A stretch of 64,000 bases of DNA from Thermoanaerobaculia bacterium (GTDB taxonomy: Bacteria > Acidobacteriota > Thermoanaerobaculia > Multivoradales > Multivoraceae). The position numbers were made by a program, and so were the translations under genes. The DNA is taken from assembly GCA_963666565.1 (NCBI GenBank), contig OY762911.1, positions 4,640,001 through 4,704,000 of the forward strand, given 5' to 3'. The notes under the pieces were generated by a model. That model was not told the origin of the DNA and made no database searches. It saw nothing but the letters and a program-made list of their open reading frames with translations. Positions 1,419-59,659 of this stretch are shown piece by piece; positions within the stretch are counted from its first letter, which is position 1, and every line of letters starts with the position of its first letter.

Positions 1419-1863
1419 CTCCCCCACGACCGTCATCGTGGACACGAACGTCGTGTCGGAGTTCATGCGGCCCAAGCCGCAGCCGATCGTCCTCGCTTGG
1501 CTGGACAGCCAGTTAAGGCGCAGCCTGTTCGTGACCGCCGTGACCGAAGCCGAGATCCGCGCGGGAATAGCGTTCCTGCCTGAAGGCCGGCGACGCCGGC
1601 TACTCGCCCGAGCCGCCGATCAGGCGTTCGGCGACTTGTTCCCGGGCCGCATCCTTCCCTTCGACACGGAAGCCGCGAGGGCCTATGCAAAGATCGCCGC
1701 CCGCTGCCGAAGGGCAGGACGGCCGATCTCGCAGCCGGACGGCCAGATTGCGGCTATTGCCCACTCTCGCGACGCCATGTTGGCAACACGAAACGTCCAG
1801 GACTTCAAGCTGGCCGCCGTTCACCTCGTCAATCCCTGGCCGCCTGTCGAGGACAACCAATGA
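1396..1863 (+). CDS. vapC: VapC/FitB PIN-domain toxin (start codon uncertain)
   Basis: PIN motifs IVDTNVVSE, TEAEI, DGQIAAIA and LATRNVQDF; follows the antitoxin. Confidence 0.88.
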   Translation: MNHPASTDSPTTVIVDTNVVSEFMRPKPQPIVLAWLDSQLRRSLFVTAVTEAEIRAGIAFLPEGRRRRLLARAADQAFGDLFPGRILPFDTEAARAYAKIAARCRRAGRPISQPDGQIAAIAHSRDAMLATRNVQDFKLAAVHLVNPWPPVEDNQ

Positions 1864-4022: not shown

Positions 4023-4041
4023 GCTGCCGGCCAGTGCGCCG

Positions 4042-4659: not shown

Positions 4660-4798
4660 GATCCAAAACGTATCCGCCGCGGGACCGGCATGTCAAGCCT
4701 GCAAGAAGACCGCGTCGCGGGCGGTACGCCTCCGAGCGCCGCACGCGGCGGCTACACTCCACGTCTCGCGGAACGGCGAAGGGCGAACCGGAGACCTG

Positions 4799-5632: not shown

Positions 5633-5716
5633 ACCGATCCGGGCACGCCCGACGTTTCGTCCCGCGGCGTGCGCTCCCTGCCGGACGCCGGCGCCCGGCG
5701 CGAGCCACGGTTCCCG

Positions 5717-19900: not shown

Positions 19901-21737
19901 CGGACTGCCCGCCGTGACCCTGACCGCCGGCGGCGCAGCAAGAACCGTCGACCTGGCGCCTGCCTTCGGCGGCACGAACCTGGTCTTCGAGGCGGCTTCG
20001 CTCGATCCGGGCGTGGCGCGAGTCTCCGTCGCCGGAGCGTCGCTCACGGCCTCGCCGGTGCGGGAGGGCCGGACCGAACTGGTCGTCGCGGCGTCGAACA
20101 GCGCGGGGCGCGCCGAGCAGCGCTTCGCGGTCGTCGTGGTCACCTCCGCGGCGGAAACGGAAGTGCTCGAGAACGCGCTGGCGGCGGTAGGCCGCGCGAC
20201 GCTGACGAGCGTCGCGGCGACGGTCCGGTCCCGCTTTGCGACGAACCGCGACAACGCCGGGATACGGATTCTCGGGCAGGAGATCCCGCTGGCGGGCGGC
20301 GACGCCGGGAATCGCCTCGGCGGCAGCGCCGGAACGACCCGCTTCGGCGGCGGCTACGGCGGCCTTGGCGGCCATGACCGGAACGATCCGAACGCCCGCT
20401 TCGCGGATCGGGCGCTGGCCAGCCTCTCCTTCGAGATCCCGTTCAGCGCCGCCGCGGCAGAGAGCGCCGAAGGCGAAGAGGCCCTCGGACGCTCCCGGTC
20501 CTGGGCGCTCTGGGGCAGCGGCGACCTGGTCTCCTTCGACGGCTCGGAGCTGGAAGACGCCTCCTTCAGCGGCGACGCCCGCACCTTCTACGTCGGCGTC
20601 GACGGTCCCGTCGGCGAGCGCTGGCTGGCCGGAGTCGCGGTCTCCAGCCTCGACGCCCGAATCGACTACGCCTTCGCCTCGTCCGGCGAGGGCGCGGGCG
20701 GCGAGGGCGAAATGCGTTCCGAGCTCGCGTCCATCCTCCCCTACGCGCGGTACGACGCCGGAGGCGGCCGCGAGTTCTGGGCAGCGCTCGGCGCCGGCAG
20801 CGGCGACGCCAGTCTGGACCGCCAGCTAGCGGACGCCGGCGACCTGGACCCGGAGAAGAGCGACCTGTCCCTGCTGATGGGCCTGGTCGGCGGACGCTGG
20901 CGCCTCGGCGGCAGCGAAATGGACCTGGCGCTCGTCGGCGACGCCGGCTTCGCGGAGCTGGAGACCGACGTCGGCGAACGGGCGGTAGACGGCCTCGCCG
21001 CCCGCGTGTCGAGACTGCGCCTGGGTCTGGAGTTCTCGCGCGCCCTCGCCGCCCGCCATGGTTCCGTGACGCCGTTCGGCGAAGTCTCCGCCCGCCACGA
21101 CGGCGGCGATGGCGCGAACGGCGCCGGGCTGGAGGTCGCCGGCGGCCTCCGCTACCGGAGCGCCTCCGGCCGGGTGCGGTTCGAGGTGCAGGCGCGGACA
21201 CTGGCGCTGCACGCCGAGAGCGGCTATCGCGAGACGGGCTACTCGCTGAGCGCGTCGGTCGAGCCGCGCGAGGGCGGCGCCGGCTTCTCCCTGTCCGTCA
21301 CGCCGACCTGGGGCCGGATCGGCGGCGCATCCCTCTTCGAGGGGACGTCCTCCGTGCGGTCGCTGGCCGGCGCCGCTCTGCCCGGCGCAAGCCACGGACA
21401 GACGATGTCGTTCCGCACCCGCGCCGCCTACGGCTTCCGGCTGGGCCTCCCGGCAGCGCTGCTCGCGCCGTTCGGCGAGTATGAAACCCACGGCGCAGGC
21501 CCCGCCAGAGTCCGAGGCGGGTTCTTCTTCGGCCTCGAGCGCCGCCGCCATACTCTGACGGTGGAGCTTTCGACCGGCGCGGGAGGCGGCTTCGGCGCAT
21601 TCTCCCTGTCTCCGGCGCCGGCAGCGCCGGCGAACCGCGCCGGCGTCGGCGATCTCCAGAGCGGCGCCCTGACCCACGCCCTGACCGCGACCGTCCGCTT
21701 CGCGCCGCCGAGAGGAGCCTCGCCGAGAAGGCCGTGA
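16923..21737 (+). CDS. Large fibronectin type III / Ig-like repeat surface protein with C-terminal autotransporter-like beta-barrel
   Basis: Signal peptide; five FN3 repeats ending in a YxFx(V/L)RAVN motif; two Cys-containing FN3-like units; four Ig-like repeats; C-terminal barrel-type sequence (WALWGSGD, LPYARY, TPFGEV, GLEVAGG). Confidence 0.85.
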   Translation: MSRTGPGGARVSEGGLKRCGASRPERRRVRLPGLLLAALAAASSSAAMATVPSKPTKPTVAGQVSGRVALQSQVFSEGSSAITKWQYQVKKGEGDYSGWSHIEASNKLLVFTLGGFENGATYRFKVRAVNASGEGPASDESDPVTIPATTPSKPTAIGVSGDNASVELTWTAGSDGGGTITKWQYRQKAGEGNYGAWLEICRTQTDENCPNKASHTVDSLTNGTAYRFKVRAVNGTGNGAASDESAAVTPSTTPAKPTDLTVAASWQAVDLGWTAGGDGGSAITGWKYQQKEGNNNWGAWLTVPNSGASTTSHTITGLTTGAAYRFKVRAVNENGDGAESAASASATPPAATLAAGGIAATTATLTIGNYTESWYRKYTSPAGGACSSTAVSTASTTVNDLKENTSYTFAAYTDAACSTLLATAAPFPTLPPQPSKPAATAGTNDGELILASSVTGDAALTRWEYKKKSESGAYEPDWTTMSSTSATLNHTVAGLTVGTRYQFKVRAVNASGAGAESDASTLERAPGEVIEPEIEFYAIEIGRTAATLVVSGYPGPWWYQGSQKGAACTAVEAGTTTVSLIGLKPATSYTFRAYGEAGCLTDSELASTEITTQDPPEATAPPAPSRPTATPGHASVTLTWTSNGDGGAAIGKWQYVKRVGDGSFETEWTDVPGGGDARTCTVDGLVAGTAYRFMLRAVNSVGAGAPSAPSAAAIPTDLGPTVRSPLQDVALPLGGAPVSLDLAISFAGEDLTWEASVEDEAVVGIRLAGPSLTLSPLALGRTAVTVTAANGYGSVSLAFAVDVRDAMPFVGRRLPNATIRVDEGPLRMELADAFGGTSLRYAASSSNPDVARLSLEGSRLVVRPTGAGMADISVAASNGVGEAKQTFRLTVRDAPPRAVGTLPDLELAPGDDPVQIDIGPAFTGSSLVFSASSSNSAAVAVSVSMPVDGGGTLTLLPLAVGRATIAVRATNVSGDAVQRFTATVADRAPEVVGGLPAVTLTAGGAARTVDLAPAFGGTNLVFEAASLDPGVARVSVAGASLTASPVREGRTELVVAASNSAGRAEQRFAVVVVTSAAETEVLENALAAVGRATLTSVAATVRSRFATNRDNAGIRILGQEIPLAGGDAGNRLGGSAGTTRFGGGYGGLGGHDRNDPNARFADRALASLSFEIPFSAAAAESAEGEEALGRSRSWALWGSGDLVSFDGSELEDASFSGDARTFYVGVDGPVGERWLAGVAVSSLDARIDYAFASSGEGAGGEGEMRSELASILPYARYDAGGGREFWAALGAGSGDASLDRQLADAGDLDPEKSDLSLLMGLVGGRWRLGGSEMDLALVGDAGFAELETDVGERAVDGLAARVSRLRLGLEFSRALAARHGSVTPFGEVSARHDGGDGANGAGLEVAGGLRYRSASGRVRFEVQARTLALHAESGYRETGYSLSASVEPREGGAGFSLSVTPTWGRIGGASLFEGTSSVRSLAGAALPGASHGQTMSFRTRAAYGFRLGLPAALLAPFGEYETHGAGPARVRGGFFFGLERRRHTLTVELSTGAGGGFGAFSLSPAPAAPANRAGVGDLQSGALTHALTATVRFAPPRGASPRRP

Positions 21738-21896: not shown

Positions 21897-22697
21897 CTAG
21901 CGGTTCCGCGTCAACGGCACGAACCGCACCGGGATCACCCGGGTCCGCTCCACCGACCCGTCCGCCCGCTTCTCCAGCACCTGGAGTTCCTGGCGGCCGC
22001 CATCGGGCCCCACCGGCAGCACCAGCCGGCCGCCGACCGCCAACTGGTCGACCAGGGGCTGCGGCACATGGTCCGGCGCCGCGGTGACGACGATCGCGTC
22101 GAACGGCGCCTCCTCCGGCCAGCCCGCGTAGCCGTCGCCGATCCGGGTCGTCACGTTCCGGTAGCCGGCCGCGTCCAGGTCCGCCGCCGCCCGCAGGCCG
22201 AGCGGCTCCACGATCTCGATCGTGTAGACGTGATCGACGATCTCCGCCAGCACCGCCGCCTGGTAGCCCGAGCCGGTGCCGATCTCGAGCACCCTGTCCT
22301 CCGGGTCGGGCTCGGCGAGCTCGGTCATCAGCGCCACGATGTAGGGCTGCGAGATCGTCTGGCGCCAGCCGATCCCGAGCGGCGAGTCGCGGTAGGCCCA
22401 CTCGCGGATCTCCTCCGGCACGAACAGGTGGCGCTCCACCTTCTCCATCGCGTCGATCACCCGGACATCGAGCACCGGCGGCCTGCCGTCGCGGGGTTCG
22501 GAGATCGTGTCGCGCACCATCTGCCGCCGGAGCGCCGTCAAGTCGACCCGTTCCTGGGCGGGTGCGGCGGAACCCGCGAGGCCCATCACGGCGGCGGCAG
22601 CGACGCCGAACCGCAGGCCCCGCGCCGCGGGCCGCCGAAGGGCCGCGTGTAGCCTTCGCCATCCCGTCCGACCGCCGCCAACCGAGGTTGTCGTCAT
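21897..22697 (-). CDS. pcm: Protein-L-isoaspartate O-methyltransferase (start uncertain; signal-peptide-like N-terminus)
   Basis: Motifs RHLFVP, QTISQPYIVALM, VLEIGTGSGYQAA, APFDAIVVTAA and VRFVPL. Confidence 0.92.
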   Translation of the reverse strand: MTTTSVGGGRTGWRRLHAALRRPAARGLRFGVAAAAVMGLAGSAAPAQERVDLTALRRQMVRDTISEPRDGRPPVLDVRVIDAMEKVERHLFVPEEIREWAYRDSPLGIGWRQTISQPYIVALMTELAEPDPEDRVLEIGTGSGYQAAVLAEIVDHVYTIEIVEPLGLRAAADLDAAGYRNVTTRIGDGYAGWPEEAPFDAIVVTAAPDHVPQPLVDQLAVGGRLVLPVGPDGGRQELQVLEKRADGSVERTRVIPVRFVPLTRNR

Positions 22698-22755
22698 CGC
22701 TCGCCCCCCAACTCCGCCCAAACGTCTGTGGAACCGACCGGGCCTGCAAGCGTAC

Positions 22756-23919
22756 ATGGGGACACTGGCCTGTTCGAGTTCCGGCCTGGGCATGTACCAG
22801 CTCCTCCTGCCCTGGCTGCTGATCAGCGCGCTTTCCCTGCCGGCCAGCCAGGTCGGCCCGCTGCAGGCGGCCGTCGGCCTTCCCGGCGTGATCATCATGC
22901 TCTGGGGCGGCGCCAGCGCCGACCGCGCGGACGCCCGGGCAACGCTGACCCGGGTGTTCGGTTCAGCGGCCCTCGTACCCCTCGCGCTGATTCTGGTACT
23001 CGAACTCGGAGAGCTCAGCGTCTGGACCGTTACCGCGTGGGGCCTCGGAATCAGCGCCGCCCTGTCCTTCTCCGGACCGGCCCAGCAGTCCGTGCTGAGC
23101 CGCATCGCGGGCCGGGATCTGCAGCGGGCGGTGACCGCGTCCACCGCCATCACGATGTTCACCACGATGATCGGGATCGGCGCCGCCGGTCAACTCGACC
23201 GAATCGGCCTGCGGCAGGTTCTGCTGGTTCAGTGCCTCTGCCTGGTCGTGGCGGCACTGTGGATCCGGCGAATCGGCTCGCACGAGTCCGCCAACGACGG
23301 GCCCACCGAGCCCACCTGGCGCCGGATCCGCGAGGGCTTCCGCGCCTCCTACCTCCAGCGTCCGGTCTTCGACGCGATGACGGTCAACTTCGTCTCCAGC
23401 ATCTTCAACGCCGGCGGCTTCCTGACCGCCTTTCCCTTCATCGTCCGGGAGGTCTACGACGGCGACGCGGAACTGCTCTCGTTGCTCATGATCGTCTTCT
23501 TCGCCGGCGCGGTCGTCTCGAACCTGATCATGCTCCGGTTCATGCCGTTCCGGAAGCCCGGCCGCTGGTTCGTCCTGTTCCAGCTCTCCCGCGTCGTCGT
23601 CCTCTTCCTGATCTGGATCGAACCCGCCTGGTGGCTGGTCGTCACCGCGGTCGTCGCCTGGGGCCTCAACATGGGCGTCACGACCACCCTGGCCCGAGCC
23701 ATCGTCCAGGAGGCCGCCGAACCGCTTTCCCGCGGCCGCGTCATGGCCGTCTTCGGCATCGGTCTGCTGGGCGCCCCGCTGATCGGCGCCGTCATCCTCG
23801 GCTGGATCGTGGAACAGTACGGTGCTCTCGCCGGCCTCGTCCCCGGCATGGCGGCTTCGGTGCTGTTGTTCCTCTACAGCATGGCGGCCACGGGGCTGTG
23901 GCGGTATCGGTCAGCCTGA
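22756..23919 (+). CDS. MFS transporter (start uncertain)
   Basis: Multiple hydrophobic helices; motif-A-like GASADRADAR; IVQEAAEPLSRGRVMA. Confidence 0.85.
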   Translation: MGTLACSSSGLGMYQLLLPWLLISALSLPASQVGPLQAAVGLPGVIIMLWGGASADRADARATLTRVFGSAALVPLALILVLELGELSVWTVTAWGLGISAALSFSGPAQQSVLSRIAGRDLQRAVTASTAITMFTTMIGIGAAGQLDRIGLRQVLLVQCLCLVVAALWIRRIGSHESANDGPTEPTWRRIREGFRASYLQRPVFDAMTVNFVSSIFNAGGFLTAFPFIVREVYDGDAELLSLLMIVFFAGAVVSNLIMLRFMPFRKPGRWFVLFQLSRVVVLFLIWIEPAWWLVVTAVVAWGLNMGVTTTLARAIVQEAAEPLSRGRVMAVFGIGLLGAPLIGAVILGWIVEQYGALAGLVPGMAASVLLFLYSMAATGLWRYRSA

Positions 23920-24313: not shown

Positions 24314-25291
24314 TCAGTCGTCGCTGGTCAGCGGCGGGAAGCGCACCTCGAGCACCGACCTCCTTTCGACCGAGCCGTCAGGCAGCTTCTCCAACACCTG
24401 GAGTACCTGGGGGCCCTCCGGCGGTCCCACGGGCACCACGAGCTTCCCGCCCGCGGCAAGCTGGTCGATCAGCGTCTGTGGCACGGGGTCGACCGGCCCC
24501 TTGACCATGATCGAGTCGAACGGCGCGAACTCAGGCCAACCCTCGAAGGGTTCGCCAACCCCCACCGTCACGTTGCCGTAGCCGAGGTCGCCGAGGGTGG
24601 CGGCGGCCCGCTGAGCGAGCGCTTCATCGGGCTCGATCGTGTAGACGCGGTCCACCATCTCGGACAGCAAAGCAGCCAGGTAGCCGGAGCCGGTACCGAC
24701 CTCCAGCACCTTGTGGCCCGAAACAGGGAGCGTCGGTGTGGTGAACACTCTCGCCTCGCTTCCGGCACCGATCTCTACTTCGTGGGTGCGGAGGGGCACA
24801 GCGAGTTCGGCCATCAACGCCACGATGTAGGCATCCGGAGTCGTCCGGCCCCGGCCAATCGACAGCTCGGGACCGCGATAGGCGCGAACTTGCTCCGCCG
24901 CCGGAACGAAGCGATGCCGCGGCACTCCGGGCACACCACCCATCACCTGGACCACCCGGTGAACGTCCAGGTCCGGGCGGTCCATGGACCGCCCGAGAAC
25001 GTACCCCATCATCTCTCCACGCTCTTTGTTCCGCTCCCAGCGGGCGGCTCCAGCCACCCCCCTTGCTGCCATGACCGTGAAGTAGCAGACGGAGAAGAGC
25101 GTGAACACGCCGGCAGCCAACACGACGACCCGAGCGAACGCCAGGGGACGCGCCGCCGAGCGGTCCGCCAGGCGCCGTCTCAGCACGGCCCCCAACGGGC
25201 GGTCCAGTTGAATCCGGCCACCGACGGGTCCATGCCCGCGCCCCTGGTCGTCGATGCTCTTCCGAGTAACCAGGGATCGCCGGATCTTCAC
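24314..25291 (-). CDS. Divergent protein-L-isoaspartate O-methyltransferase paralog with N-terminal TM segment
   Basis: VPRHRFVP, YIVALMAEL, VLEVGTGSGYLAA, APFDSI and VRFPPL are present; TISQP is replaced by TTPDA. Confidence 0.78.
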   Translation of the reverse strand: MKIRRSLVTRKSIDDQGRGHGPVGGRIQLDRPLGAVLRRRLADRSAARPLAFARVVVLAAGVFTLFSVCYFTVMAARGVAGAARWERNKERGEMMGYVLGRSMDRPDLDVHRVVQVMGGVPGVPRHRFVPAAEQVRAYRGPELSIGRGRTTPDAYIVALMAELAVPLRTHEVEIGAGSEARVFTTPTLPVSGHKVLEVGTGSGYLAALLSEMVDRVYTIEPDEALAQRAAATLGDLGYGNVTVGVGEPFEGWPEFAPFDSIMVKGPVDPVPQTLIDQLAAGGKLVVPVGPPEGPQVLQVLEKLPDGSVERRSVLEVRFPPLTSDD

Positions 25292-29907: not shown

Positions 29908-31623
29908 ATGACCACGCAGACAAACGCGGACGAGTCCTCCGCCGGCAGCGCCGGGGGCGAGCCCTCCGCGGACGAGGTCACGGGCTTTCGCACCGCTCCC
30001 GACCGGTACCGGCACTGGAAGCTCGAGATCGAGCCGCCGCTCGCCTTCCTGACCCTCGAAGTCGACGAGCAGGCGGGGCTGCGTCCCGGCTACCGGCTCA
30101 AGCAGAACTCCTACGACCTGGGCGTCGACTTCGAGCTCCACGACGCCACGCAGCGGCTGCGGTTCGAGCACCCGGAGGTCCACGCCGTGGTGCTCCGCTC
30201 GGACCGCGACCGCATCTTCTGCGCCGGCGCGAACATCGGCATGCTCGGCGCCTCCTCGCACCAGTTGAAGGTGAACTTCTGCAAGTTCACGAACGAGACT
30301 CGCCTGGCGATCGAGGACGCGTGCCGGCACTCCGGCCAGCGCTACCTGTGCGCGGTCCGCGGCACGGCGGCCGGCGGCGGCTACGAGCTGGCGCTCGCCT
30401 GCGACCGCATCCTGCTCGCCGACGACGGGAGTTCGGCCGTCTCGCTGCCGGAGGTGCCGCTGCTGGGCGTGCTGCCCGGCACCGGTGGGCTGACCCGGCT
30501 GCTCGACAAGCGTCGGGTCCGCCGCGACCGGGCCGACCTGTTCTGCACCCTGGAGGAGGGCGTCAAGGGCCGGCGGGCCGCGGACTGGAACCTGGTGGAC
30601 GAGCTGCTGCCGCGGTCCTCCTTCGACGAAGGCGCGAAGGCGCGGGCGCTGGAACTCGCGGCTTCGAGCGACCGTCCCGCGGCGCCCGGCGGCGCTGACT
30701 GGCCCGAAGTCGAGCCGCGGCCCGAAGCGGACTCGATTCGCTACTCCACGCTCCGCATCGAGTTCGACCGAGCGCTCGGCGCAGCCCGCCTGACCGTGCT
30801 CGGCCCAACCGACCCGCCGCCGGGCGATGCGCCGGAAGCACTGGCCGGGAGCGCCGGATTCTGGCCTCTCGTCCTCGCGCGCGAACTCGACGACGCCCTG
30901 CTCCACCTGCGCCTGAACGAGACCCGGATCGGACAGCTCGTCATCGAATCGGAAGGCGATCCGGACGCGGTGGCCGCCTTCGACGCGTTCCTTCATCGGG
31001 AGCGCGAGCACTGGTTCGTGCGCGAGGCGCTGCTCTACTGGAAGCGAGTGCTCAAGCGCCTCGACCTGACCGCGCGCAGCGCGTTCACGCTGATCGCGCC
31101 GGGGAGCTGCTTCGCGGGGTTGCTGCTCGAACTCGCGCTGGCCTCGGACCGCGCCTACATGTTCGAGGGCGAGAGCGATGACGGCGAGGCCGCGCCTTGC
31201 ATCCGGCTCGGCGAACTGAACTTCGGCACGTTTCCCACGCCGAACGGGCTCAGCCGTCTCGAAACCCGGTTCCTCGGCCGGGAGGACGCGATCGACTCCC
31301 TCCGCGCGCTCATCGGCAGGCCTCTGGAAGCCGCCGACGCCGCGGAGGCCGGGCTCGTCACCGAGGTGCTCGACGACCTGGACTGGGAGGACGAGGTCCG
31401 CATCGCCCTGGAGGAGCGGGCCAGCTTCTCGCCCGACGCGCTGACCGCGCTGGAGGCCAACCTCCGCTTCCCCGGTCCCGAAACGCTCGAGAGCAAGATC
31501 TTCGGACGACTCAGCGCCTGGCAGAACTGGATCTTCCAGCGCCCGAACGCGGTCGGCGAAGAGGGCGCGCTCCGCCTTTACGGCACCGGCCGCAGACCAC
31601 GCTTCGACAGCGAACGCATCTAG
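29908..31623 (+). CDS. boxC: 2,3-epoxybenzoyl-CoA dihydrolase
   Basis: YRHWKL, NSYDLGVDFEL, RLRFEHPEV, KVNFCKFTNETR and IFGRLSAWQNWIFQRPNAVG. Confidence 0.95.
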   Translation: MTTQTNADESSAGSAGGEPSADEVTGFRTAPDRYRHWKLEIEPPLAFLTLEVDEQAGLRPGYRLKQNSYDLGVDFELHDATQRLRFEHPEVHAVVLRSDRDRIFCAGANIGMLGASSHQLKVNFCKFTNETRLAIEDACRHSGQRYLCAVRGTAAGGGYELALACDRILLADDGSSAVSLPEVPLLGVLPGTGGLTRLLDKRRVRRDRADLFCTLEEGVKGRRAADWNLVDELLPRSSFDEGAKARALELAASSDRPAAPGGADWPEVEPRPEADSIRYSTLRIEFDRALGAARLTVLGPTDPPPGDAPEALAGSAGFWPLVLARELDDALLHLRLNETRIGQLVIESEGDPDAVAAFDAFLHREREHWFVREALLYWKRVLKRLDLTARSAFTLIAPGSCFAGLLLELALASDRAYMFEGESDDGEAAPCIRLGELNFGTFPTPNGLSRLETRFLGREDAIDSLRALIGRPLEAADAAEAGLVTEVLDDLDWEDEVRIALEERASFSPDALTALEANLRFPGPETLESKIFGRLSAWQNWIFQRPNAVGEEGALRLYGTGRRPRFDSERI

Positions 31624-31677
31624 GGGCGTCCGCACCGGTTTCGGCTGCGCTGGCGCGCAGGGAACCGGCTGTCTGCC

Positions 31678-31718
31678 GGGTGCGCGGGTCTTCCGACCCG
31701 CTGCCGCCGAAGGCGGCC
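31678..31718 (+). repeat. REP-like element between boxC and boxB
   Basis: Full consensus GGGTGCGCGGGTCTTCCGACCCGCTGCCGCCGAAGGCGGCC. Confidence 0.88.
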
Positions 31719-31747
31719 AGCTCCGCGCAAGCGAGTACTCTCAACCG

Positions 31748-33226
<1,479 letters not shown>

Positions 33227-34012: not shown

Positions 34013-35050
34013 ATGAAGGTCGGCGTCCTCCAGTTCTTCTCCTGGCCGGACCGGCGGATTCCGCTCGATCAGGTCTACCACCGCGCCTTCCAGCGCATCG
34101 ACATCATGGAGCGGAACGGCTACGACGCCGTCTGGCTCGCCGAGCACCACTTCAGCTCGTTCAGCATCTGCCCGTCGATCCACATCATGGGCACCCACGT
34201 GGCCGCGAGGACGGAGAACCTCCGCATCGGCACCGGCGTCTCACTGGCCCCGTTCTACAACCCGCTGCGGTTGGCGGAGGAGGTGGCGCTGCTCGACGTG
34301 CTGTCGGGCGGCCGGGTGAACTGGGGCGTCGGCCGCGGCTACCAGGAGGGCGAGTTCAAGGCCTTCGGCGTCGACCCGCAGCACAGCTACGAGGTGTTCC
34401 GCGAGCACGTCCAGACCGTGATCGGCGCGTGGACGGAGGAGCGCCTGACGTTCGAGGGCGAGCACTTCCGGTGCGAGGACGTCGAGGTGCTGCCGAAGCC
34501 GGCGCAGCGGCCGCACCCGCCGGTGTGGTTGGCGGCCTCCTCGCCGGAGGCGATGAACTGGGCCGCCGAGAACGGATTCTCGATCATGCTCGACCCGCAC
34601 TCGGCGCACACCCGGATCGCCCGGAAGCGGGAGCTGTACCGGGGCATCCTGGAGGACCACGGACACTCGATCGAGGGCCGGGAAATCCCGATGGCCCGCC
34701 TGATCGCCTGCGCTCCGACCCGTGCGGAGGCGGAGCGGATCGCGCGCCAGGGCGCCGAGTGGACGGTCGGCTCGCACAAGAAGAAGGGCGTGCGGGCGGC
34801 CAGGGTCGAGAGCAGGCTCAACCGCGACCTGAGCGATCTGGCCCAGGACCACATCTTCAAGGACTCGGCGACCCGGTCCGCCATCGACCGTTACCTCGAC
34901 GGCGTCATCGTCTACGGCACGCCGGACGAGTTGATCGACGAGATCGCGCGGCTGAAGGAGGAGATGTTCCTCGACTACCTGCTGCTAGCGCCCCTCAGCC
35001 ACAGTTCCTTCGTGCTGTTCACGGACGAAGTGCTGCCCCGCGTCGTCTGA
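34013..35050 (+). CDS. LLM-class flavin-dependent oxidoreductase
   Basis: WLAEHHF, PLRLAEEVALLDVLSGGR, GRGY and PKPAQRPHPPVW. Confidence 0.92.
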   Translation: MKVGVLQFFSWPDRRIPLDQVYHRAFQRIDIMERNGYDAVWLAEHHFSSFSICPSIHIMGTHVAARTENLRIGTGVSLAPFYNPLRLAEEVALLDVLSGGRVNWGVGRGYQEGEFKAFGVDPQHSYEVFREHVQTVIGAWTEERLTFEGEHFRCEDVEVLPKPAQRPHPPVWLAASSPEAMNWAAENGFSIMLDPHSAHTRIARKRELYRGILEDHGHSIEGREIPMARLIACAPTRAEAERIARQGAEWTVGSHKKKGVRAARVESRLNRDLSDLAQDHIFKDSATRSAIDRYLDGVIVYGTPDELIDEIARLKEEMFLDYLLLAPLSHSSFVLFTDEVLPRVV

Positions 35051-35054
35051 AAAC

Positions 35055-35200
35055 CCGCTGGGTGCGCGGGTCTTCCGACCCGCCCACGTGCGGTGCCGCG
35101 GAGCCGCCCGGCCGGACGACAGGGCGGCCGGCCGGAGGCCGGCGCGACTCACTTGGCCGCCTCCGGCGGCAGCGGGTCAGAGGACCCGCGCACCCAGCGG
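35055..35200. repeat. Inverted REP doublet (BIME/REPIN-like)
   Basis: CCGCTGGGTGCGCGGGTCTTCCGACCCGC on the plus strand faces a near reverse-complement copy, GCGGGTCAGAGGACCCGCGCACCCAGCGG. Confidence 0.85.
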
Positions 35201-35214
35201 CTACGTCTGCCGCT

Positions 35215-35526
35215 TCAGCGACGGCGGCCCTTGAACACGTACGACAGGCCCTCTTCGGCGAAGGCGCGGCACGCCTTGTCCTTGAACTCCACCGCCTTGT
35301 CCCATTCCTCGACGTCGTAGTAGTCGCGCTCGGCGACGACCCGGATCTCGCGCACCGTACGCTCGTCGAGATCGAGGCGCTCCGCGATCTCGCGGTCCGA
35401 CAGGCCGCGGCGCCGCTTCTCGCCCGGCAGGTGCTCGTGGATGTCGACCTGGATCGAGTTCGACAGCTCCAGGATCTCCTCGCGGTGGCGGCGGTAGGTC
35501 TCGGGATCGACAAAGAAGAAAGCCAC
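35215..35526 (-). CDS. Small hypothetical protein with HTH-like segment
   Basis: GTG start after AGGAG; GLSDREIAERLDLDERTVREIR; third gene of the operon. Confidence 0.75.
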   Translation of the reverse strand: MAFFFVDPETYRRHREEILELSNSIQVDIHEHLPGEKRRRGLSDREIAERLDLDERTVREIRVVAERDYYDVEEWDKAVEFKDKACRAFAEEGLSYVFKGRRR

Positions 35527-35547
35527 GTTCGACTCCTTTCTCGGCTC

Positions 35548-36450
35548 CTACGCCTTCTGCCGGAACTCGGCGCCCACGGGACAGACCCTCATGCACTCCC
35601 AGCACTGCCCCTGGCTCTGCGCCGCGTAGGTCATCGACCACAGCGTCTTCGTGAAGTGGCTGGAGTACAGCACCATCTTGCGCGCCTCCGGGTCGTCCTG
35701 GTCGAGGGCGAGTTCGAGCCCCTTCTGGAAGCCGGGAATCCAGTGCGTGTAGACCCGGGACGTGCAGCGGGCCGCGTCGTAGCGGCGCTCGACCAGCCGG
35801 CCGTTCTCGATCCGGCCGTCCAGGCAGCCGCCGTCGCCGAGCGGGCAGACCCTGGTGCAGGGCGTGGCGCCCTCGGCCTCCCACATCTCGACGCAGGCCG
35901 GCGCCGGGCAAGCCGGTTCGGCAAGCGGCGGCGTGACGGGGAACGGGTACGTGGTGACGATCGCCGAGTAGAACAGCAGGCCGTACTCGGGGTGCAGCAC
36001 CGGGCCGGCCAGGCTGCGCGAGCCGCAGCCGGCCAGCTCCGCCGCCAGGGCGACGCTCAGGAAGGGCCGGTTGCCGCGACGGACGCCCGGCGGCACGAAC
36101 AGCGCGTAGTAGCCGAACTCCGCCTCGATGAACTTCGCCGCCTTGAGGCCGAGGGAGTTGATCCGGTCGCTGGTGCCCATCGTCTCCAGGTGCTCGTGGA
36201 CCGGACTCGCCCAGTCCGCCGCCCGCGGCGGACTGCCGCCGAGGACCACGACGCGGCGCGCATCCGGCAGCAGGTCGCCCGGACGGAAGCCCTCCGGTGC
36301 GTCTCCGAAGGCGCCGGCGTCGGCGACGCCCAGGGCCAGGGCGCCGCCGCGCTCGGCCATCGCCGTCAGGCGATCCAGCGCGGCCGCCGCTTCGTCCGCC
36401 GTCGGCTCGGGAGCGATCCCCGAGTCGGGGGCGATCCGCCGGACCGTCAC
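35548..36450 (-). CDS. QueG/reductive-dehalogenase-fold cobalamin and Fe-S protein, paralog B
   Basis: LGVAD, GFRPGDLLPDARRVVV, AAELAGCG, LHPEYG, C-X4-C-X11-C-X3-CP and CWECMRVCPVG; GTGA overlap with paralog A. Confidence 0.78.
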   Translation of the reverse strand: MTVRRIAPDSGIAPEPTADEAAAALDRLTAMAERGGALALGVADAGAFGDAPEGFRPGDLLPDARRVVVLGGSPPRAADWASPVHEHLETMGTSDRINSLGLKAAKFIEAEFGYYALFVPPGVRRGNRPFLSVALAAELAGCGSRSLAGPVLHPEYGLLFYSAIVTTYPFPVTPPLAEPACPAPACVEMWEAEGATPCTRVCPLGDGGCLDGRIENGRLVERRYDAARCTSRVYTHWIPGFQKGLELALDQDDPEARKMVLYSSHFTKTLWSMTYAAQSQGQCWECMRVCPVGAEFRQKA

Positions 36451-37310
36451 CGGAGCCGCCTCTCGCCCATGCCGACCGGACACACCCGCATGCACTCGAA
36501 GCACTGCGCCACGCTCTCCTTGTAGTACGAGAGCGACGAAAGCGACTGGGTGAAGAAGTCGGAGTAGATCATCGACCTGCGCCGGTCCCGGTCCTCTTCC
36601 GTGGTGATCTGGACAAGGGACTTCTGGATCGAGCCGATGCCGAAGTTCATCGACCGCGAGGTGCAGCGCTCGCGGTCGTAGTACGAGTAGCCGATCCTGC
36701 CGTCCTCGTCGAGCGCGCCGTCGAGGCAACCGCCCTCGTCCTTCGGGCAGGAGGCGAGGCAAGGCGTCGTGCCCAGCTTCTCGTACATCTGGATGCAGGG
36801 CTTGGAAGGGCAGACATCCTCCTCGAGCGGGTGGTCCGGTTCGAGATCGAGGGTTGTGACCAGCGCGGCGTAGTACAGCAGGCCGTAGCGAGGATGGAGG
36901 ATGATGTTCGCGGCCAGCGACCGGGTGCCCAGACCGGCCAGCACCGCGGCCAGCATCATGCTCATCGGCGGATTGTGCCCGGCCGTGGGGAGAGACGGCG
37001 CCTGCAGGGCGCGGTGGCCGTGTTCCCGCTCGATGTAGTCGCACATCACGTGGACCGCCACGTTCTCGCGGAAGTCGTAGCCGGTGATCTCCATCACGCG
37101 GTGATCGGGACAGCGCCAGGCGCCCGCCGTCGGCCCCTGGTTGCCTGCGACGACGACGCTCTTCGCGCCCGGCAGAACGTCTTCCGGCCGGTGCCCCTCC
37201 GGCACGAACTCGTTGAACGCGCTGGCGGCGGCGACACCGACCACGAGGGCGCCGGCCCCGGCGCCGACGTCGCGCACCGCCGCCGTTCGCTGCTGTCGGG
37301 CGTCCGCCAT
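36447..37310 (-). CDS. QueG/reductive-dehalogenase-fold cobalamin and Fe-S protein, paralog A
   Basis: VGVA, GHRPEDVLPGAKSVVV, AAVLAGLG, LHPRYG, C-X4-C-X11-C-X3-CP and CFECMRVCPVG. Confidence 0.78.
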   Translation of the reverse strand: MADARQQRTAAVRDVGAGAGALVVGVAAASAFNEFVPEGHRPEDVLPGAKSVVVAGNQGPTAGAWRCPDHRVMEITGYDFRENVAVHVMCDYIEREHGHRALQAPSLPTAGHNPPMSMMLAAVLAGLGTRSLAANIILHPRYGLLYYAALVTTLDLEPDHPLEEDVCPSKPCIQMYEKLGTTPCLASCPKDEGGCLDGALDEDGRIGYSYYDRERCTSRSMNFGIGSIQKSLVQITTEEDRDRRRSMIYSDFFTQSLSSLSYYKESVAQCFECMRVCPVGMGERRLR

Positions 37311-37337: not shown

Positions 37338-38057
37338 GTGAACTCCGGGGACGATAGCACCAGCGTCGACGCGGGCGTCGAGGTCGTCAATCCGTGGGAG
37401 GAGCGGAAGGACCGCGGCAGGTTCTCCGCCCTCGTCGCCTCTCTCGTCCTCCTGGCCACCGCCCCGAGGAAGTTCTTCGACGGTACCCGGCCCGACGCGG
37501 GCATCTGGAGTCCGCTCTTCTTCGTGGGCCTGATCACGGTCATCTATGTCGTCCTGGGAGGCGTCGTTCTCACGGTCCTTTCGCTGACCCTTTCGGAACA
37601 GGCACTGGAGTCCGTCTGGCAAACCTGGTTCTGGACCAATCCGTCTCAGTTCGGAACCTCGGAGGAACTGCCCTTCGGCCCCACCCTGACCGCCCTCATC
37701 GGCTTCCAGCTCCTCCTGCTCACTCTCCCCCTCATCTTCGCCATCACGCTGATCGTGATGTTGATCTGGGGCTCGCTGGTCCACCTTCTTCTGGTCGCAA
37801 CTCGCACCCCGAGGCCTCACGGGTTCCGCGGCACCTGGGCCGTGATGTGCTACGCCAACGGTGCAGCCCTCCTGGGCATCGTTCCCGTCGCGGGCGGAGT
37901 CCTGGGAAGCGTCTGCAGCGCGGTTCTGGTCGGGATCGGCCTTCACGTCGTGCAGCGGGTCGGCGTCATTCGAGCCACGGTCCTGGCCTCGATCCTGCTC
38001 CTCCTGTCCTTCCTGGGGTGGCTGATCCCTCGCGCCTTGCAAGGCAGCATCTTCTAA
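37338..38057 (+). CDS. YIP1-family membrane protein
   Basis: PWEER...LLATAPRKFF N-terminus, about five TM helices and GFRGTWAVMCYA. Confidence 0.7.
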   Translation: MNSGDDSTSVDAGVEVVNPWEERKDRGRFSALVASLVLLATAPRKFFDGTRPDAGIWSPLFFVGLITVIYVVLGGVVLTVLSLTLSEQALESVWQTWFWTNPSQFGTSEELPFGPTLTALIGFQLLLLTLPLIFAITLIVMLIWGSLVHLLLVATRTPRPHGFRGTWAVMCYANGAALLGIVPVAGGVLGSVCSAVLVGIGLHVVQRVGVIRATVLASILLLLSFLGWLIPRALQGSIF

Positions 38058-49833: not shown

Positions 49834-52800
49834 ATGAGATCACCAGGACGACAGGAAGGCGACCGGCTCATCGAGGCGCAGGCCCAGCGGCAGGTGCAGA
49901 CATTCTTCGACGAACTGAAGAACGGCACCCGGAACTACCGGACGGTCGCCAGCCTGAGCGGGCAAATCACCCAAGAGTACCGGGGACGCTGCGTGCTGGA
50001 GCTCCTGCAGAACGCACACGACGCGCTCGCCGGCGCCGGACCGGACGATCCACGCCTCATCTCGTTCGTGCTCGTTGCCGAACCCGAACCCGAACTCCTG
50101 GTTGCGAACAGCGGCCGGCCCTTCCGCCGGAAGGACTTCGAGGGGATCTGTCAACTCGGCCAAAGTCCGAAGGACCCGAACGAGAGCGTGGGAAACAAGG
50201 GGCTCGGCTTCCAGAGCGTTCTCGAAGTGTCTACGCGGCCCGAAGTCTGGTCGACTGCCGCCGCAGAAGACTCCCTGGAGTTCGCGTTCGGTTTCGACCC
50301 TGCCGGAATGCGGCGTCTCGTCGAGCAGGCGGCCGCCGAGATCGAGCGTGGGTCATCGACTCCGCAAGCCAGCACCGGCCGCCGAATCATCAACTGGTCG
50401 CAAGAACAGTTGCTCGACTACCAGAGACATGACCGGTCCGGCGGAGCGGTCGACGCTACTCGCGAAGCCCGGAGGTACCTGTCCCCATACTCGATCCCGC
50501 TGCCGATCGCGGAGACGCCTCCAGAGGTCGCCGAGCTTCTAGGCGCGGGTCACGTGACGGTCATCCGACTGCGGATCGACGGTGGCAGAACCCGCGCGGT
50601 GGACGAGGCCATCGAGGACCCCGACCAGCCTGCAGGCGCAACTGCTGATCAGCGACTCGCAGTGAACGAGGCGATTGATGCGATCAAGGACCAGCTCGAC
50701 GAACTGGACGCCCGCTCGACCGTCTTCCTGCAGGACCTCGAGAAACTGACCATCGACATCGACGGAGAGCGCCGTGTTCTCGAGCGAATCGTCGATTCGA
50801 CCGCAGAGGTGCCGGCCTCGCGACCTGCGCGCGAGCAAGTGCTGCTGGTTGGGGGGCCAGCCCAAACCGCCCTGGCCGACACCACCCGGGAGTTCCGCGT
50901 ATGGACGCGCGGCCTGGGAGGCGATGGCGACCTCGCGGAAGCGCGACGAATCCGGGATGCCGTCAAGCACCTGCCGAACCGTTGGCCGGAGGTTCGGCAG
51001 GTCGAGGTCGGCGTAGCGGTCGAGGACACGGAATCGCCGGAACCGGGCGCGTTCGTCATCTTCCTGCCCACGGAAGTCGGAACCGGCGCCGGAGCGCTCG
51101 TCAACGCCCCGTTCTACGGTTCGCTCGACCGCCGCCAGATCAACTTCGAGGACGAGTACAACTCGCTGCTACTCGAGTACGTCATGGACTTGGCGCTCGA
51201 CGTGGCCACCGAACTCGCGGCGGGACCGACCGAAGTGTGGCGCGCACGGGCGGTCATCGACCTGCTTGCTTCCGCGGGCCCGACGCCCGCGGACGGTCGA
51301 CCGGCCCCCATGGACCGAGTCCGTCAGCGGGCGGACGACACACAACGGGATCTCGACAAGGCGGCCCTGCTCCTCTGCGACGCCGGTTGGCGAAGGGCCG
51401 AAACCGCGAGGTTCATGCCCGACGTTCCCGGCGATGGCCCCCTAGGCGCGGACCCATGGCGCGAAAGCGCCGCCTTCGACGTCGTCTCTTCCGGGCTCGA
51501 CGGTCGCCGCAAGGACGTCGAAGCGCTTCTCGACTGTTTCGGCGGATCGTCGAAGCCGGCGCCAGCCGAGTGGGTGAACACGGTCGAGCGTCTCGCGGAT
51601 CGGATTCACCGCGGCGGGATCGACGTTCCCTGGGACGCGTTTCTGACCAGTTTGGGAACGGTCCTGCCGCAAGAGATCCGCTCCGAACCCAGGACCGGCA
51701 CCGCCGACCCGCTCTCCAATGCAGAGTTCCTACCCACCCAGGACGGCCGTGTGCTCTCCGCCTCCGGCGGCGTCCAGATCTTCTTTCGGCCCCGTAGAGG
51801 ATTCGACGACGCAGCGGAGTTCGTCGATCGAGTTCCCGACGCGCTCGCGGATCGCATCGCGTTCCTTCACGATGGCGTGAGGACCCATGAAGGGCCGCAA
51901 CGGCGGAACACCGAAGTCCAGGGGTTCCTAAGCGGACGGAACGGACGCTTCGTCCAGAGCTTCCGGCGAGAAGACCTCCTCCGGGAGGTGATCCTCCCGG
52001 CACTCCCCGAGTTGCCCGCGGAACATGGGACACCGGAGGCCGACCGCTGCTCCGAGATCCTCGGATGGACGCTCCTGCTGCTCGGCGGCGAAGAGCTGGA
52101 AGCGGTCGACGACCTCCTGAGACGTCTGCCTGTTGCCTGCCACGGCGGTTGGCTGGCGGCGGGCAAGGCAGCCTTCGGTCCGGGTTGGCCAAGCCGGCAT
52201 GGCGAGTGCCTCCAGACACTGGCAGACGGCTTGCCCGAAGGTGGACGCCGCGTGCTCGACCTCGCGCTCCTGCCGCCGCGGGACCCGCGGTGGAGACTCG
52301 ACTCGGCGGCTCCGAACGAACTGCTCGAGAGAGCCGGGGTCATCGACGGACTCCCCCTGGAAACCGCGGAACCACTTCTCTTCGCGATGTCCGCGAAGTA
52401 CCGGGAGTTGCCGCGGAACGCGCCTCGGGGCATTCCCCAGGACGCGTGGGACGACTGGCTCGACGCCGTGGATGCGGAACTGAAGCCGGAGATCAAGAGT
52501 CGGACCGCCTACCGGCTCGCCGATGTCCATCTGGCGTCCGAGATCCACTCCCTGCCGAATCTCGACGCGCCGGCGGGAGAAGCCCTTTCCGACCTGATCC
52601 TCTCGTCCCTAGGGAAGTGGGACGGTGCGTGGGAATCGGCCATGGTCACGAGACCGCGCTATCCGAACTTCCCCACCGGCATCACCTCTCCTCTCAAGCA
52701 CTGGCTGACAACTCTCCCGTGGCTCCATGACAACCAGATCAAGCCGCGCCCGCTGTGCCGGCGATGGTTCGTGCCGGAGTCGCTCCTCCGGGGTCAAGGG

Positions 52801-55425: not shown

Positions 55426-56028
55426 TCACCTGTACGGAAACAGCCTCCGCACTTCGAGCTCAATCTCCACGCCCGGCACTCTCAGCCGATCGTCGCCGTC
55501 GTGGACCGATCGCTCGCTATAGCCGTCAGGCCCGGGCGCGCTGCACGCTTCGACGGTACGACTTCCCAAGTCGACCAGCCAGAACTCCCGGATGCCGTGG
55601 CGGGCGTAGAGCCGCGCCTTGACCCGGCGGTCGTAGTCTCGGGTCGTGTCCGAGACCTCGATGGCGAGGAGCACGTCCTCGGGCCGCGGGAGACTCTGGC
55701 TGTACGCGTCATCGCGCCTGACGAGCACGCAGACGTCGGGCTGCGGCTCCGTGGCGTCATCGAGACGAATCGGGCTCTGAACCCGGATGGAGGCGCGGCG
55801 GTCGACCGCGCCGAAGAGGAACTCGGCAAGGAGGTCGACACAGGCCGCGTGGCGACTTCCGACGGGGGACATCACGACGATTTCTCCTTCGATGAGCTCG
55901 ACCCGGTCGTCTTCGCTCAGGATTCCCGCCCGCGCCATCGCGTGGTAGTCGTCCACCGTGAACAACCGTCTGGCGGGTGTAGCAGGCGGTGTCCCCTCCG
56001 CCCTCGTCTTTCGCGCGGCCACCGTCAT
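55426..56028 (-). CDS. Uma2-family endonuclease (DUF820)
   Basis: ELIEGEI, PQPDV, LAIEVSDTT and KARLYARHGIREFWLVD. Confidence 0.92.
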   Translation of the reverse strand: MTVAARKTRAEGTPPATPARRLFTVDDYHAMARAGILSEDDRVELIEGEIVVMSPVGSRHAACVDLLAEFLFGAVDRRASIRVQSPIRLDDATEPQPDVCVLVRRDDAYSQSLPRPEDVLLAIEVSDTTRDYDRRVKARLYARHGIREFWLVDLGSRTVEACSAPGPDGYSERSVHDGDDRLRVPGVEIELEVRRLFPYR

Positions 56029-59277: not shown

Positions 59278-59532
59278 TCAGCCGCCGCCCGTCGGCTCCT
59301 CGCCGTCCTCCAAGGGACCGGCCACGCAGCTCAGCAGTTCCTTCACCTCGTCCAGCCGGTTGTCCGGTACGCAGAGCTTCACCGGCACCGGCGACTTCCC
59401 CATCATCCCCATGCCGAACATGCCGACCCCGGCGCTCTGCACCAGGAACGGAATGTCGTACTGGTCCAGGGCGTGGCCGATCGTCTCGGCCTCGAGCCGG
59501 GAGTCGAAGGTGGCGAGTTCGACGAACTTCAC
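59278..59532 (-). CDS. DUF2007-like putative signal-transducing protein
   Basis: ATFDSRLEAETIGHALDQYDIP and VKLCVP pattern. Confidence 0.7.
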   Translation of the reverse strand: MKFVELATFDSRLEAETIGHALDQYDIPFLVQSAGVGMFGMGMMGKSPVPVKLCVPDNRLDEVKELLSCVAGPLEDGEEPTGGG

Positions 59533-59659
59533 GGATGCGGCGCCTGCAACACGGTCGCCCTCCAGCTTAGCGAAGCCCGGGCTCCCCGGCGCACCGGGTC
59601 CAGCCGCGTCGGCGCGCGGGCAGTTGCCTCAAGACGTCCCGACGTCTATAGTCCCCGGC

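Follow-up and report, generated by a model that had tools for sequence, protein, structure and literature searches.

A three-gene operon in the genome of an uncultivated, sponge-associated bacterium of the Thermoanaerobaculia raises the question which reaction might be performed by two short, paralogous proteins that have the fold of the epoxyqueuosine reductase QueG and of the reductive dehalogenases (RDH; RdhA), but are canonical members of neither group. The operon is part of a stretch of 64,000 nucleotides (contig OY762911.1, positions 4,640,001 to 4,704,000), which is called the window in the following and to which the coordinates refer unless another locus is named. It is encoded on the minus strand and consists of gene A (alpha, 36447-37310), gene B (beta, 35548-36450), and gene S (gamma, 35215-35526). 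A is a short QueG/RdhA-fold protein of 287 amino acids with an ATG start codon, B is its paralog of 300 amino acids with a GTG start codon, and S, also with a GTG start codon, is an all-helical protein of 103 amino acids with a helix-turn-helix (HTH)-like core. We propose, with a probability of about 0.6, that the three proteins form a cytoplasmic heteromeric iron-sulfur (Fe-S) reductase, which would represent a new subfamily within the QueG/RdhA group and act on a coenzyme A (CoA) thioester. The evidence comes from the fold, the pattern of cysteine ligands, the pairing of A and B, the fusion of S to related enzymes, and the linkage to genes for acyl-CoA ligases.

To our knowledge, only two activities have been described for the corrinoid/Fe-S fold, namely, tRNA epoxide reduction by QueG and reductive dehalogenation by RdhA. 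The trio is a sharply conserved and widespread relative, represented by at least 157 genomic stretches and 665 protein clusters, so far exclusively from metagenome-assembled genomes (MAGs). Its characterization might uncover a novel reaction, based on B12 or Fe-S clusters, by which aromatic or other acids are degraded in sponge symbionts, Rokubacteria, Entotheonella, and bacteria of marine sediments. A full-text literature search, with subscription-only papers outside its coverage, retrieved no paper on the A/B/S family.

Two paralogs with a pattern of nine cysteines

The three genes are tightly packed. The TGA stop codon of A (36449-36447) and the GTG start codon of B (36450-36448) overlap in the sequence GTGA (36447-36450), the start codon of A is preceded by GGAG, and an AAGGAG ribosome-binding site (35533-35538, minus strand) is situated 6 nucleotides 5' of the start codon of S. 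The GTGA-coupled genes and the small gene of 103 codons had been recognized in a preliminary description of the locus, and the coordinates read from the sequence agree with it; the strand, which is minus for all three genes, had been omitted.

An alignment of A and B over 266 residues shows an identity of 45% (E 1e-73), and both proteins contain the motif C-x4-C-x11-C-x3-CP, a cysteine in the segment GGC (GGCL), a lone cysteine in the context 'RC', a stretch of exactly 53 residues, and the motif C-x2-C-x3-CP. The spacing was counted with regular expressions over the ortholog alignments, which comprise 28 A and 36 B sequences. The form C-x4-C-x11-C-x3-C-x6-C-x20-C-x53-C-x2-C-x3-C is present in 26 of the 28 A orthologs, and the remaining two have x19 in place of x20. 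The x19 form is found in 35 of the 36 B orthologs, with one non-match. Taken together, 63 of the 64 orthologs exhibit the pattern, the gap of 53 residues is identical in all 63, and nine cysteines are invariant in the A family as well as in the B family. The pattern, which had attracted attention in the preliminary description because of its unusual spacing, is real and far beyond chance.

A comparison of the two families identified 58 positions that are at least 90% conserved in both A and B, including all nine cysteines, and nine positions that are switched, at which A has one fixed residue and B another. Therefore, A and B seem to be an obligate pair with non-equivalent sites and not redundant copies. 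The loops G-Y-D-F and G-H are invariant in A, and B has conserved loops of its own. The mean column identity is 72% for A, 67% for B, and 68% for S (over 39 sequences).

The relationship was also analyzed with a maximum likelihood tree of 51 rows, made up of 10 of the 28 A sequences, 9 of the 36 B sequences, 30 relatives, and the two halves of one fusion protein; four long proteins were trimmed to 300 residues. The A and the B sequences form one monophyletic group each (support 100/99 for both), and the two are sister groups (96/93). The motif C-x4-C-x11-C-x3-CP marks a clade of 36 rows that holds A, B, and forms fused to S, and the sister clade of 15 rows has a near-canonical cysteine spacing. 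A and B are ancient paralogs that have been kept as a pair, and they are encoded side by side in 78 of 79 loci. Their heteromeric pairing had been postulated from the window alone, and the sister clades and the common location support this postulate.

Fold and homology

Searches with family models gave little information on A and B. No Pfam family matched at its cutoff, with only weak Fer4 matches at the C-terminal C-x2-C-x3-CP, and a Pfam domain was detected in none of the 665 homologs of A (protein clusters). No NCBIfam model was found at its cutoff either. The best NCBIfam match was the RDH model TIGR02486 (A: E 3e-6, 27.3 bits; B: E 9e-5, 22.5 bits; cutoff 160), and the QueG equivalog model TIGR00276 yielded 16.9 bits for A and 13.1 bits for B (cutoff 200).

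The AlphaFold2 model of A (predicted local distance difference test, pLDDT, 74.7; predicted template modelling score, pTM, 0.70) was compared to known structures with Foldseek. All 46 of 46 matches at E<=1e-3 were QueG, PceA, the RDH complex 8q4h, or NpRdhA, with TM values of about 0.5. QueG 5t8y was the best match (E 9e-8, TM 0.51), PceA, RDH, and NpRdhA followed with E values of 1e-6 to 5e-5, and the next match was MMACHC, a B12-trafficking protein (E 4.8e-3). The model thus places A within the QueG/RdhA/CblC superfamily of corrinoid-binding folds, for which no sequence motif is known that would be diagnostic of the binding of base-off cobalamin. Both proteins are predicted to have an N-terminal alpha/beta domain of the corrinoid-binding type, followed by a ferredoxin-like domain.

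At the sequence level, the profile of B matched E. coli QueG with an hhalign probability of 71.6% (E 3.5e-5, 187 columns). The profile of A retrieved 696 representatives at E<=1e-3 from a library of 1.84 billion proteins, among them the intermediates P0192 and P0206 (E 3e-25 and 3e-22), which themselves gave E values of 1.5e-27 and 1.7e-16 with the models of QueG and RDH. Judged by these profile matches, a sequence homology to QueG and RDH is traceable through intermediates. The QueG/RdhA fold, which had been deduced from short motifs in the preliminary description, has therefore been substantiated by the Foldseek matches and by the bridging proteins.

P0192 and P0206 belong to a group of short QueG-like proteins (P0206, P0229, P0202, the tandem fusions P0192 and P0194, and the pair in loci L040 and L042), which have the same layout with 260-330 amino acids per unit. 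They share with A and B the C-terminal C-x2-C-x3-CP, the lone cysteine, and a tendency to form pairs or tandem fusions. However, they form a separate clade (100/100), their first motif is C-x2-C-x2-C-x3-CP or C-x4-C-x2-C-x3-CP, and no S partner was seen with them. P0192 (670 amino acids) and P0194 (678 amino acids) are tandem fusions of two QueG-like units. The pair in L040 (4379-6343, plus strand) and L042 (10029-11965) is a second adjacent pair of distant QueG-like paralogs of 334 and 317 amino acids, which match the QueG/RDH models with E 1e-11 to 1e-12 and are encoded upstream of a TetR gene and the trio. Another architecture of the superfamily is represented by P0239, P0258, and P0272 (770-813 amino acids), in which 4-5 matched stretches indicate several N-terminal domains of the QueG type, along with canonical C-x2-C-x2-C-x3-CP motifs. 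A putative A-B fusion, P0125 (600 amino acids), was rejected as an artefact, as its middle part is garbled as if frameshifted.

In public databases the homologs are named 'hypothetical protein', '4Fe-4S ferredoxin', or, at JGI, 'epoxyqueuosine reductase QueG'. The latter name is not supported by the tests of family membership, and a characterization of the family would mend a systematic 'QueG' mislabelling in automatic annotation. While the fold superfamily is known, the subunit architecture, the geometry of the cluster motifs, and the partner protein are new, and the substrate class is probably new, too.

Comparison with QueG and reductive dehalogenases

According to a paper on QueG (PMC5175355), the ligands of its two clusters are Cys188-x2-Cys191-x2-Cys194-x3-Cys198, Cys214, and Cys240-x2-Cys243-x3-Cys247. 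Cys 198, 214, 240, and 243 bind the cluster proximal to cobalamin, and Cys 188, 191, 194, and 247 bind the distal cluster. The same paper describes QueG as a monomer and assigns a HEAT-like RNA-binding domain to Leu257-Leu385 of the B. subtilis protein. When these assignments are transferred with hhalign via E. coli QueG, C181, C186, C198, and C202 of B align with the cysteines of the first QueG motif, with inserts of 2 and 9 residues, and Cys229 in 'RC' aligns with the lone cysteine. The C-terminal C-x2-C-x3-CP seems to be the obvious counterpart of Cys 240/243/247, though it is outside of the aligned stretch. Eight of the nine invariant cysteines would thereby constitute the ligand sets of two [4Fe-4S] clusters. 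The ninth cysteine (in GGC; C195 in A, C209 in B) is an extra residue in an insertion relative to QueG, and a helical insert of 53 residues precedes the last cysteine motif, compared to about 25 residues in QueG. Eight cysteines of A and B can thus be aligned with the ligands of QueG, but their spacing is not the canonical one, and a ninth cysteine is invariant.

QueG (structures 5d08, 5d0a, 5d0b, 5t8y, and 5d6s) is the best fold match of A, the order of domains is the same, a segment A-G-x-G ... P-x-Y-G is shared, and all these proteins are cytoplasmic. In contrast, the first motif is C-x2-C-x2-C-x3-C in QueG and C-x4-C-x11-C-x3-CP in A and B, the C-terminal HEAT-like tRNA-binding domain is missing in A and B, which end 7-10 residues past the last CP motif, and the QueG monomer is opposed by two paralogs and a small protein. 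Both the canonical cysteine motif and the GxDYH substrate motif of QueG had been stated to be absent. This is correct for the cysteine motif and, with respect to GxDYH, for B, which has a different conserved segment at this site. For A it is not as simple, because its invariant G-Y-D-F-R aligns with G-K-D-Y-H in a weak profile alignment (E 0.18) with B. subtilis QueG. In the same alignment, which is weak especially in the loops, the catalytic Asp134 of QueG corresponds to Thr109 of A and His106 to Arg81; the QueG numbering was derived from PMC5175355 via a chain offset of 28, which fits both Asp134 and His106.

A and B resemble RdhA proteins (respiratory PceA/RdhA, 4ur3 and 8q4h; catabolic NpRdhA, 4ras and 6zxx) in their fold and in the two Fe-S motifs that follow the putative cofactor domain. 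The similarity to NpRdhA includes the cytoplasmic location of A and B. The host of NpRdhA is not an obligate anaerobe, and the same can be assumed from their taxonomy for the hosts of the trio. However, RdhA proteins have about 450-700 amino acids compared to about 290 for A and B, the proposed enzyme is a heteromer of paralogs and S, and the score of the RDH model is 22-27 bits versus the cutoff of 160. No signal for twin-arginine translocation (Tat) was found in A, which has no RR motif, or in B. The N-terminus of B, V-T-V-R-R-I-A-P, contains an RR pair, but it is not followed by a hydrophobic stretch and the segment is not conserved in orthologs, so that a Tat signal can be dismissed. No gene for a membrane anchor like RdhB, the small membrane protein encoded next to RdhA proteins of the respiratory type, is present in the operon, which encodes only A, B, and the soluble helical S without a hydrophobic helix. 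The notion that the proteins are neither canonical QueG nor canonical RdhA is thus well founded, with scores of 13-27 bits against cutoffs of 160-200 and with HEAT domain, Tat signal, and RdhB all missing.

Conservation of the trio

A scan of 185,579 species-representative genomes, limited by its search pattern, gave 198 pattern matches, at least 157 of which encode a relative. The best 80 of the 157 loci were analyzed, all from MAGs; A was the query that selected the loci, and B and S were located by tblastn. All relatives are derived from MAGs or metagenomes. Twenty-eight loci are 91-98% identical to the window, bear the titles Candidatus Multivorans, Thermoanaerobaculia, Holophagales, or Acidobacteria, and were counted as one lineage. 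The titles of the other 52 loci are Entotheonella/Tectomicrobia, other Acidobacteriota, Myxococcota, Planctomycetota, Rokubacteria/Methylomirabilota, Binatia, and Alpha-, Beta-, and Gammaproteobacteria (Woeseiaceae, Lysobacterales).

Gene B follows A in 78 of the 80 loci, the exceptions being L060, which is truncated by the contig end, and L055, in which A occurs alone. S follows B in 75 of the 80 loci; it is missing at the contig ends of L028, L060, and L064 and, in addition, in L038 and L055. This means that S is present in 75 of the 77 loci with enough sequence, and the order A-B-S is kept. The gaps between the three genes are mostly shorter than 80 nucleotides or replaced by overlaps, with the exception of L028, in which A and B are separated by 2.8 kilobases (kb).

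The model of S is all-helical (pLDDT 84), and the protein contains one nearly invariant cysteine. Its sequence is 50-72% identical across phyla, and S is as conserved as A and B. An S-like C-terminal domain was found on A/B-like proteins, i.e., P0147 (391 amino acids), P0149 (401 amino acids), P0275, and P0276. S matches the C-terminal domains of P0147 and P0149 with hhalign probabilities of 98.1% and 97.1% (E 9e-14 and 7e-11). Three full-length clusters are of the P0147 type, each from a different source, and one source is a Thermodesulfobacteriota MAG. The fusions came from the HMMER search of the protein library; a word-based search, aimed at S domains in longer proteins, had a single match of 188 amino acids. 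The fusion of S to A/B-like enzymes indicates that S works attached to the enzyme, and S is probably not a regulator but a subunit. The role of S as a partner, which had been anticipated from the window, has been corroborated by the 75 of 77 loci and by the fusions. A prediction of the A+B+S complex had a median score of 0.43, and a control with chain 2 replaced had a score of 0.47.

Linkage to acyl-CoA ligases

A gene for an AMP-forming acyl-CoA ligase is the one recurrent neighbor of the trio and is present in 23 of the 52 distant loci. In MAGs of Woeseiaceae, Lysobacterales, and other Gammaproteobacteria it is located directly 5' of A on the same strand and ends 2-50 nucleotides before A, so that ligase, A, B, and S make up one operon. 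In Rokubacteria and one Hyphomicrobiales MAG it is located directly 3' of S, and in others nearby. The ligases are only 28-38% identical between groups, and they represent at least three subfamilies that belong to different NCBIfam families. Those of L044 and L055 are members of the benzoate-CoA ligase family (608 and 576 bits versus a cutoff of 375), and the gammaproteobacterial ligases belong to PRK06187 (542 bits versus 476). Different ligases have been recruited independently, and therefore the linkage is better evidence for a functional connection than inherited synteny. The ligase gene of L055 is located upstream on the other strand.

Additional neighbors are enoyl-CoA hydratases in 6-7 loci, short-chain dehydrogenases/reductases (SDRs) in 7-8 loci, and parts of LIV-type ABC transporters in 5-9 loci. 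PaaA-like di-iron proteins adjoin the trio in L045, L048, L050, and L066 (106 and 62 bits; cutoff 280). The clusters of the Woeseiaceae loci L051 and L056 have the order RDH-like gene, enoyl-CoA hydratase, CoA ligase, A, B, S, in which the RDH-like gene (L051: 2900-4492, plus strand; L056: 3533-4525) matches TIGR02486 with E 1e-27 and 98 bits, below the cutoff. Locus L040 encodes a 2x[4Fe-4S] ferredoxin of 101 amino acids directly 3' of S (9150-9455, plus strand).

The window itself contains the genes boxC, encoding 2,3-epoxybenzoyl-CoA dihydrolase, and boxB, encoding benzoyl-CoA 2,3-epoxidase, together at 29908-33226 on the plus strand. Both are above the cutoffs of their models (TIGR03222, 839 bits; TIGR03225, 828 bits), and in the clade of the window BoxB and BoxC are encoded 2-5 kb from the trio. 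Neither a boxA-type reductase gene nor a gene for a CoA ligase is present among the scanned open reading frames (ORFs) of the 64-kb window. BoxB, PNPOx, Yip1, and PheS were found in 23-27 of the close loci only and in 0 of the 52 distant loci, and BoxC and the luciferase-like monooxygenase (LLM) had weak matches of 28-35% in 2 and 3 of the 52 distant loci, respectively. All six were rejected as functional partners, because their synteny is confined to the clade. The link to LLM and boxCB that had been suggested before does therefore not hold as a conserved association, but a link to the catabolism of CoA thioesters, possibly aromatic ones, is favored by the CoA ligases and the PaaA-like neighbors.

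The proposed reductase

For the corrinoid, the contacts between the subunits, the direction of electron flow, and the chemistry we infer the following scheme. A and B would form a heterodimer, in which A has the QueG-like pair of loops G-Y-D-F-R and G-H and B a different one. S would dock as a helical lid or substrate-recognition module at the place of the C-terminal helical domain of QueG; the idea of a detachable module stems from the fact that QueG has a helical domain of its own C-terminal to the ferredoxin-like domain. Electrons could be transferred from an external donor of the ferredoxin type to the distal [4Fe-4S] cluster, from there to the proximal [4Fe-4S] cluster, and finally to the corrinoid, which would be bound by the N-terminal domain and catalyze a reductive elimination with two electrons, i.e., the reduction of an epoxide to an alkene, a dehalogenation, or a dehydroxylation. 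The substrate would be a small carboxylic acid in the form of its CoA thioester, possibly aromatic, and not a tRNA. Deoxygenation of aryl-CoA epoxides would fit, because it is the type of reaction performed by QueG and because BoxB and PaaA-like proteins are neighbors. On present evidence, it does not seem separable from the dehalogenation or dehydroxylation of aryl-CoAs.

A more far-reaching version of the proposal is that the trio is a third functional branch of the corrinoid/[4Fe-4S] reductases, namely, that aerobic or facultative bacteria use this alpha-beta-gamma enzyme to convert reactive aryl-CoA epoxides back into the aromatic thioester or to strip an aryl-CoA of another substituent. 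Candidate epoxides may be 2,3-epoxybenzoyl-CoA, formed by BoxAB, and 1,2-epoxyphenylacetyl-CoA, formed by epoxidases of the PaaA type. This version is speculative and, in its entirety, unlikely to be correct. If it were true, the B12 epoxide chemistry that QueG performs on tRNA would have a place in the catabolism of small molecules, and S would be a detachable lid for substrate recognition.

Several observations weigh against the proposed CoA thioester reductase. The pLDDT of 74.7 indicates moderate confidence in the model of A, with the lowest values at the two loops of the putative active site (residues 61-80 and 101-120). A search of the PDB with the profile of A, built from 28 orthologs, had QueG as its single match, which was weak (E 0.18), and the hhalign comparison of this profile with E. 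coli QueG reached a probability of 26% with 27 aligned N-terminal columns. The ligase is absent from 29 of the 52 distant loci and from all 28 close loci within the fetched flanks, and no AMP-binding gene was found among the scanned ORFs of the window, which also contains no cob, btu, or other B12-related gene. The neighbors other than ligases are few and mixed (P450, LLM, SDR, LIV transporters). L038 and L055 have no S despite sufficient room, and the search for a hidden S domain in the ORF after B of L038 was negative. L055, from a Binatia MAG (4480-7042), has A alone with an altered C-terminal tail, and a protein of 220 amino acids and a small antitoxin-like/PIN-like pair are found in place of B and S.

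In addition, five B genes look broken, possibly due to assembly errors or decay. The tblastn matches of L003, L033, and L058 are split or truncated as by frameshifts, and in-frame stop codons are present in L046 (7894-8733), with a TGA at a conserved Trp, and in L072 (7876-8691), with a TAG at a variable site. Selenocysteine was rejected as an explanation, because the two sites are a conserved Trp and a variable position, and not a Cys. No broken A gene is present in the set, but A was used for the selection of the loci.

Alternative explanations

Several alternatives to the proposed CoA thioester reductase have to be considered. The first is a special case of it, namely, a catabolic reductive dehalogenase, which would be cytoplasmic like NpRdhA and remove halogens from halogenated aromatic acids or their CoA esters. 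RDH is indeed the best NCBIfam match of both A and B, PceA and NpRdhA are among the fold matches, and genes of the benzoate-CoA ligase family are located beside the trio in L044 and L055. Many host MAGs are titled as sponge-derived bins, and sponges are rich in brominated aromatics. Yet the family also occurs in Rokubacteria of groundwater and soil and in Woeseiaceae of sediments, the score of 22-27 bits is far from the cutoff of 160, and the Woeseiaceae operons have, at the upstream end of the cluster, a distinct RDH-like gene with a much higher score (98 bits). A restriction of the activity to dehalogenation is unlikely.

The second alternative concerns S, which might be an ordinary HTH transcription regulator of the operon, with an enzyme that consists of A and B only. 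The preliminary description had left the choice between subunit and regulator. S has weak matches to HTH_23 (E 1e-3, 19.2 bits, cutoff 24.6) and Sigma70_r4_2 (E 0.01, 15.9 bits, cutoff 25.7). Foldseek found no match to the model of S at E<=1e-3 (best E 0.87), and matches to sigma region 4 and LuxR-type proteins had probabilities of 0.5-0.7. In the ESM Atlas, A and S matched only unnamed clusters of the same families, and the nearest named clusters for S are HTH families at 0.78-0.79. However, every HTH match is below the threshold, an identity across phyla that equals that of A and B would be unusual for a local regulator, S is the last gene of the operon and is preceded by a strong ribosome-binding site, and four protein clusters consist of A/B-like enzymes with a covalently attached, C-terminal S-like domain. 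The evidence favors a subunit, and a role as regulator is unlikely.

Third, the trio might be free of a corrinoid and serve as an Fe-S, possibly flavin-containing, electron-transfer or reductase module for di-iron CoA-ester oxygenases such as BoxB and PaaA-like proteins, in which case it would replace BoxA or PaaE. The corrinoid-binding fold derives from the flavin-binding nitroreductase-like fold. The window with its boxC and boxB genes and without a boxA-type gene among the scanned ORFs would be in agreement with this role, as would the PaaA-like genes that directly adjoin the trio in four loci and the lack of a B12 gene nearby. However, searches of A and B with Pfam and NCBIfam revealed no domain for the binding of NAD(P)H or flavin, and most loci have no di-iron neighbor within 7 kb. 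Furthermore, the N-terminal domain is conserved as strongly as the cluster motifs and has paralog-specific invariant polar residues that resemble a substrate site. We regard this alternative as quite improbable.

Finally, a non-orthologous tRNA epoxyqueuosine reductase, in which S provides the nucleic acid-binding role of the HEAT domain in trans, would account for QueG as top fold match, the name QueG of many homologs at JGI, the HTH-like core of S, and the G-Y-D-F-R of A at the site of G-K-D-Y-H, but it is very improbable in view of the 17 and 13 bits with the QueG equivalog model (cutoff 200), the alignment of Asp134 with Thr and of His106 with Arg in the weak profile comparison, the operons shared with CoA ligase and enoyl-CoA hydratase genes, and the rarity of the trio, with 157 matching stretches in the pattern-limited scan of 185,579 species genomes.

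Surroundings of the operon and further features of the window

The operon is flanked by plus-strand genes on both sides. A gene for a Yip1-domain membrane protein (37341-38057, plus strand) is divergent from it, and the LLM gene (34013-35050, plus strand) is convergent to it. A scan for promoters and terminators between 35000 and 37600 revealed no promoter-like site and one terminator-like site, which is on the opposite strand and at chance level. Immediately 3' of the stop codon of S, a GC-rich hairpin of 6 bp (AGCGGC, a loop of 7 nucleotides, GCCGCT; 35196-35214, minus strand) can be formed, which has no T-run and was not flagged by the terminator scan.

The window encodes two very large proteins. 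One ORF of 1604 codons (16923-21737, plus strand) contains fibronectin type III repeats and an autotransporter beta-domain, and the other, with 1856 codons (49834-55404, plus strand), has only a weak match to a sacsin domain. Two ORFs with protein-L-isoaspartate O-methyltransferase (PCMT) domains are located about 1 kb apart on the minus strand (21897-23165 and 24314-25291), and both have long N-terminal extensions, possibly due to over-called starts. Further genes are of the toxin-antitoxin or restriction type, i.e., those for a PIN domain (1354-1863, plus strand), a RES domain (3456-4202, minus strand), a putative endonuclease of the Uma2 family (55426-56028, minus strand), and an N6/N4 DNA methylase (59360-60811, plus strand).

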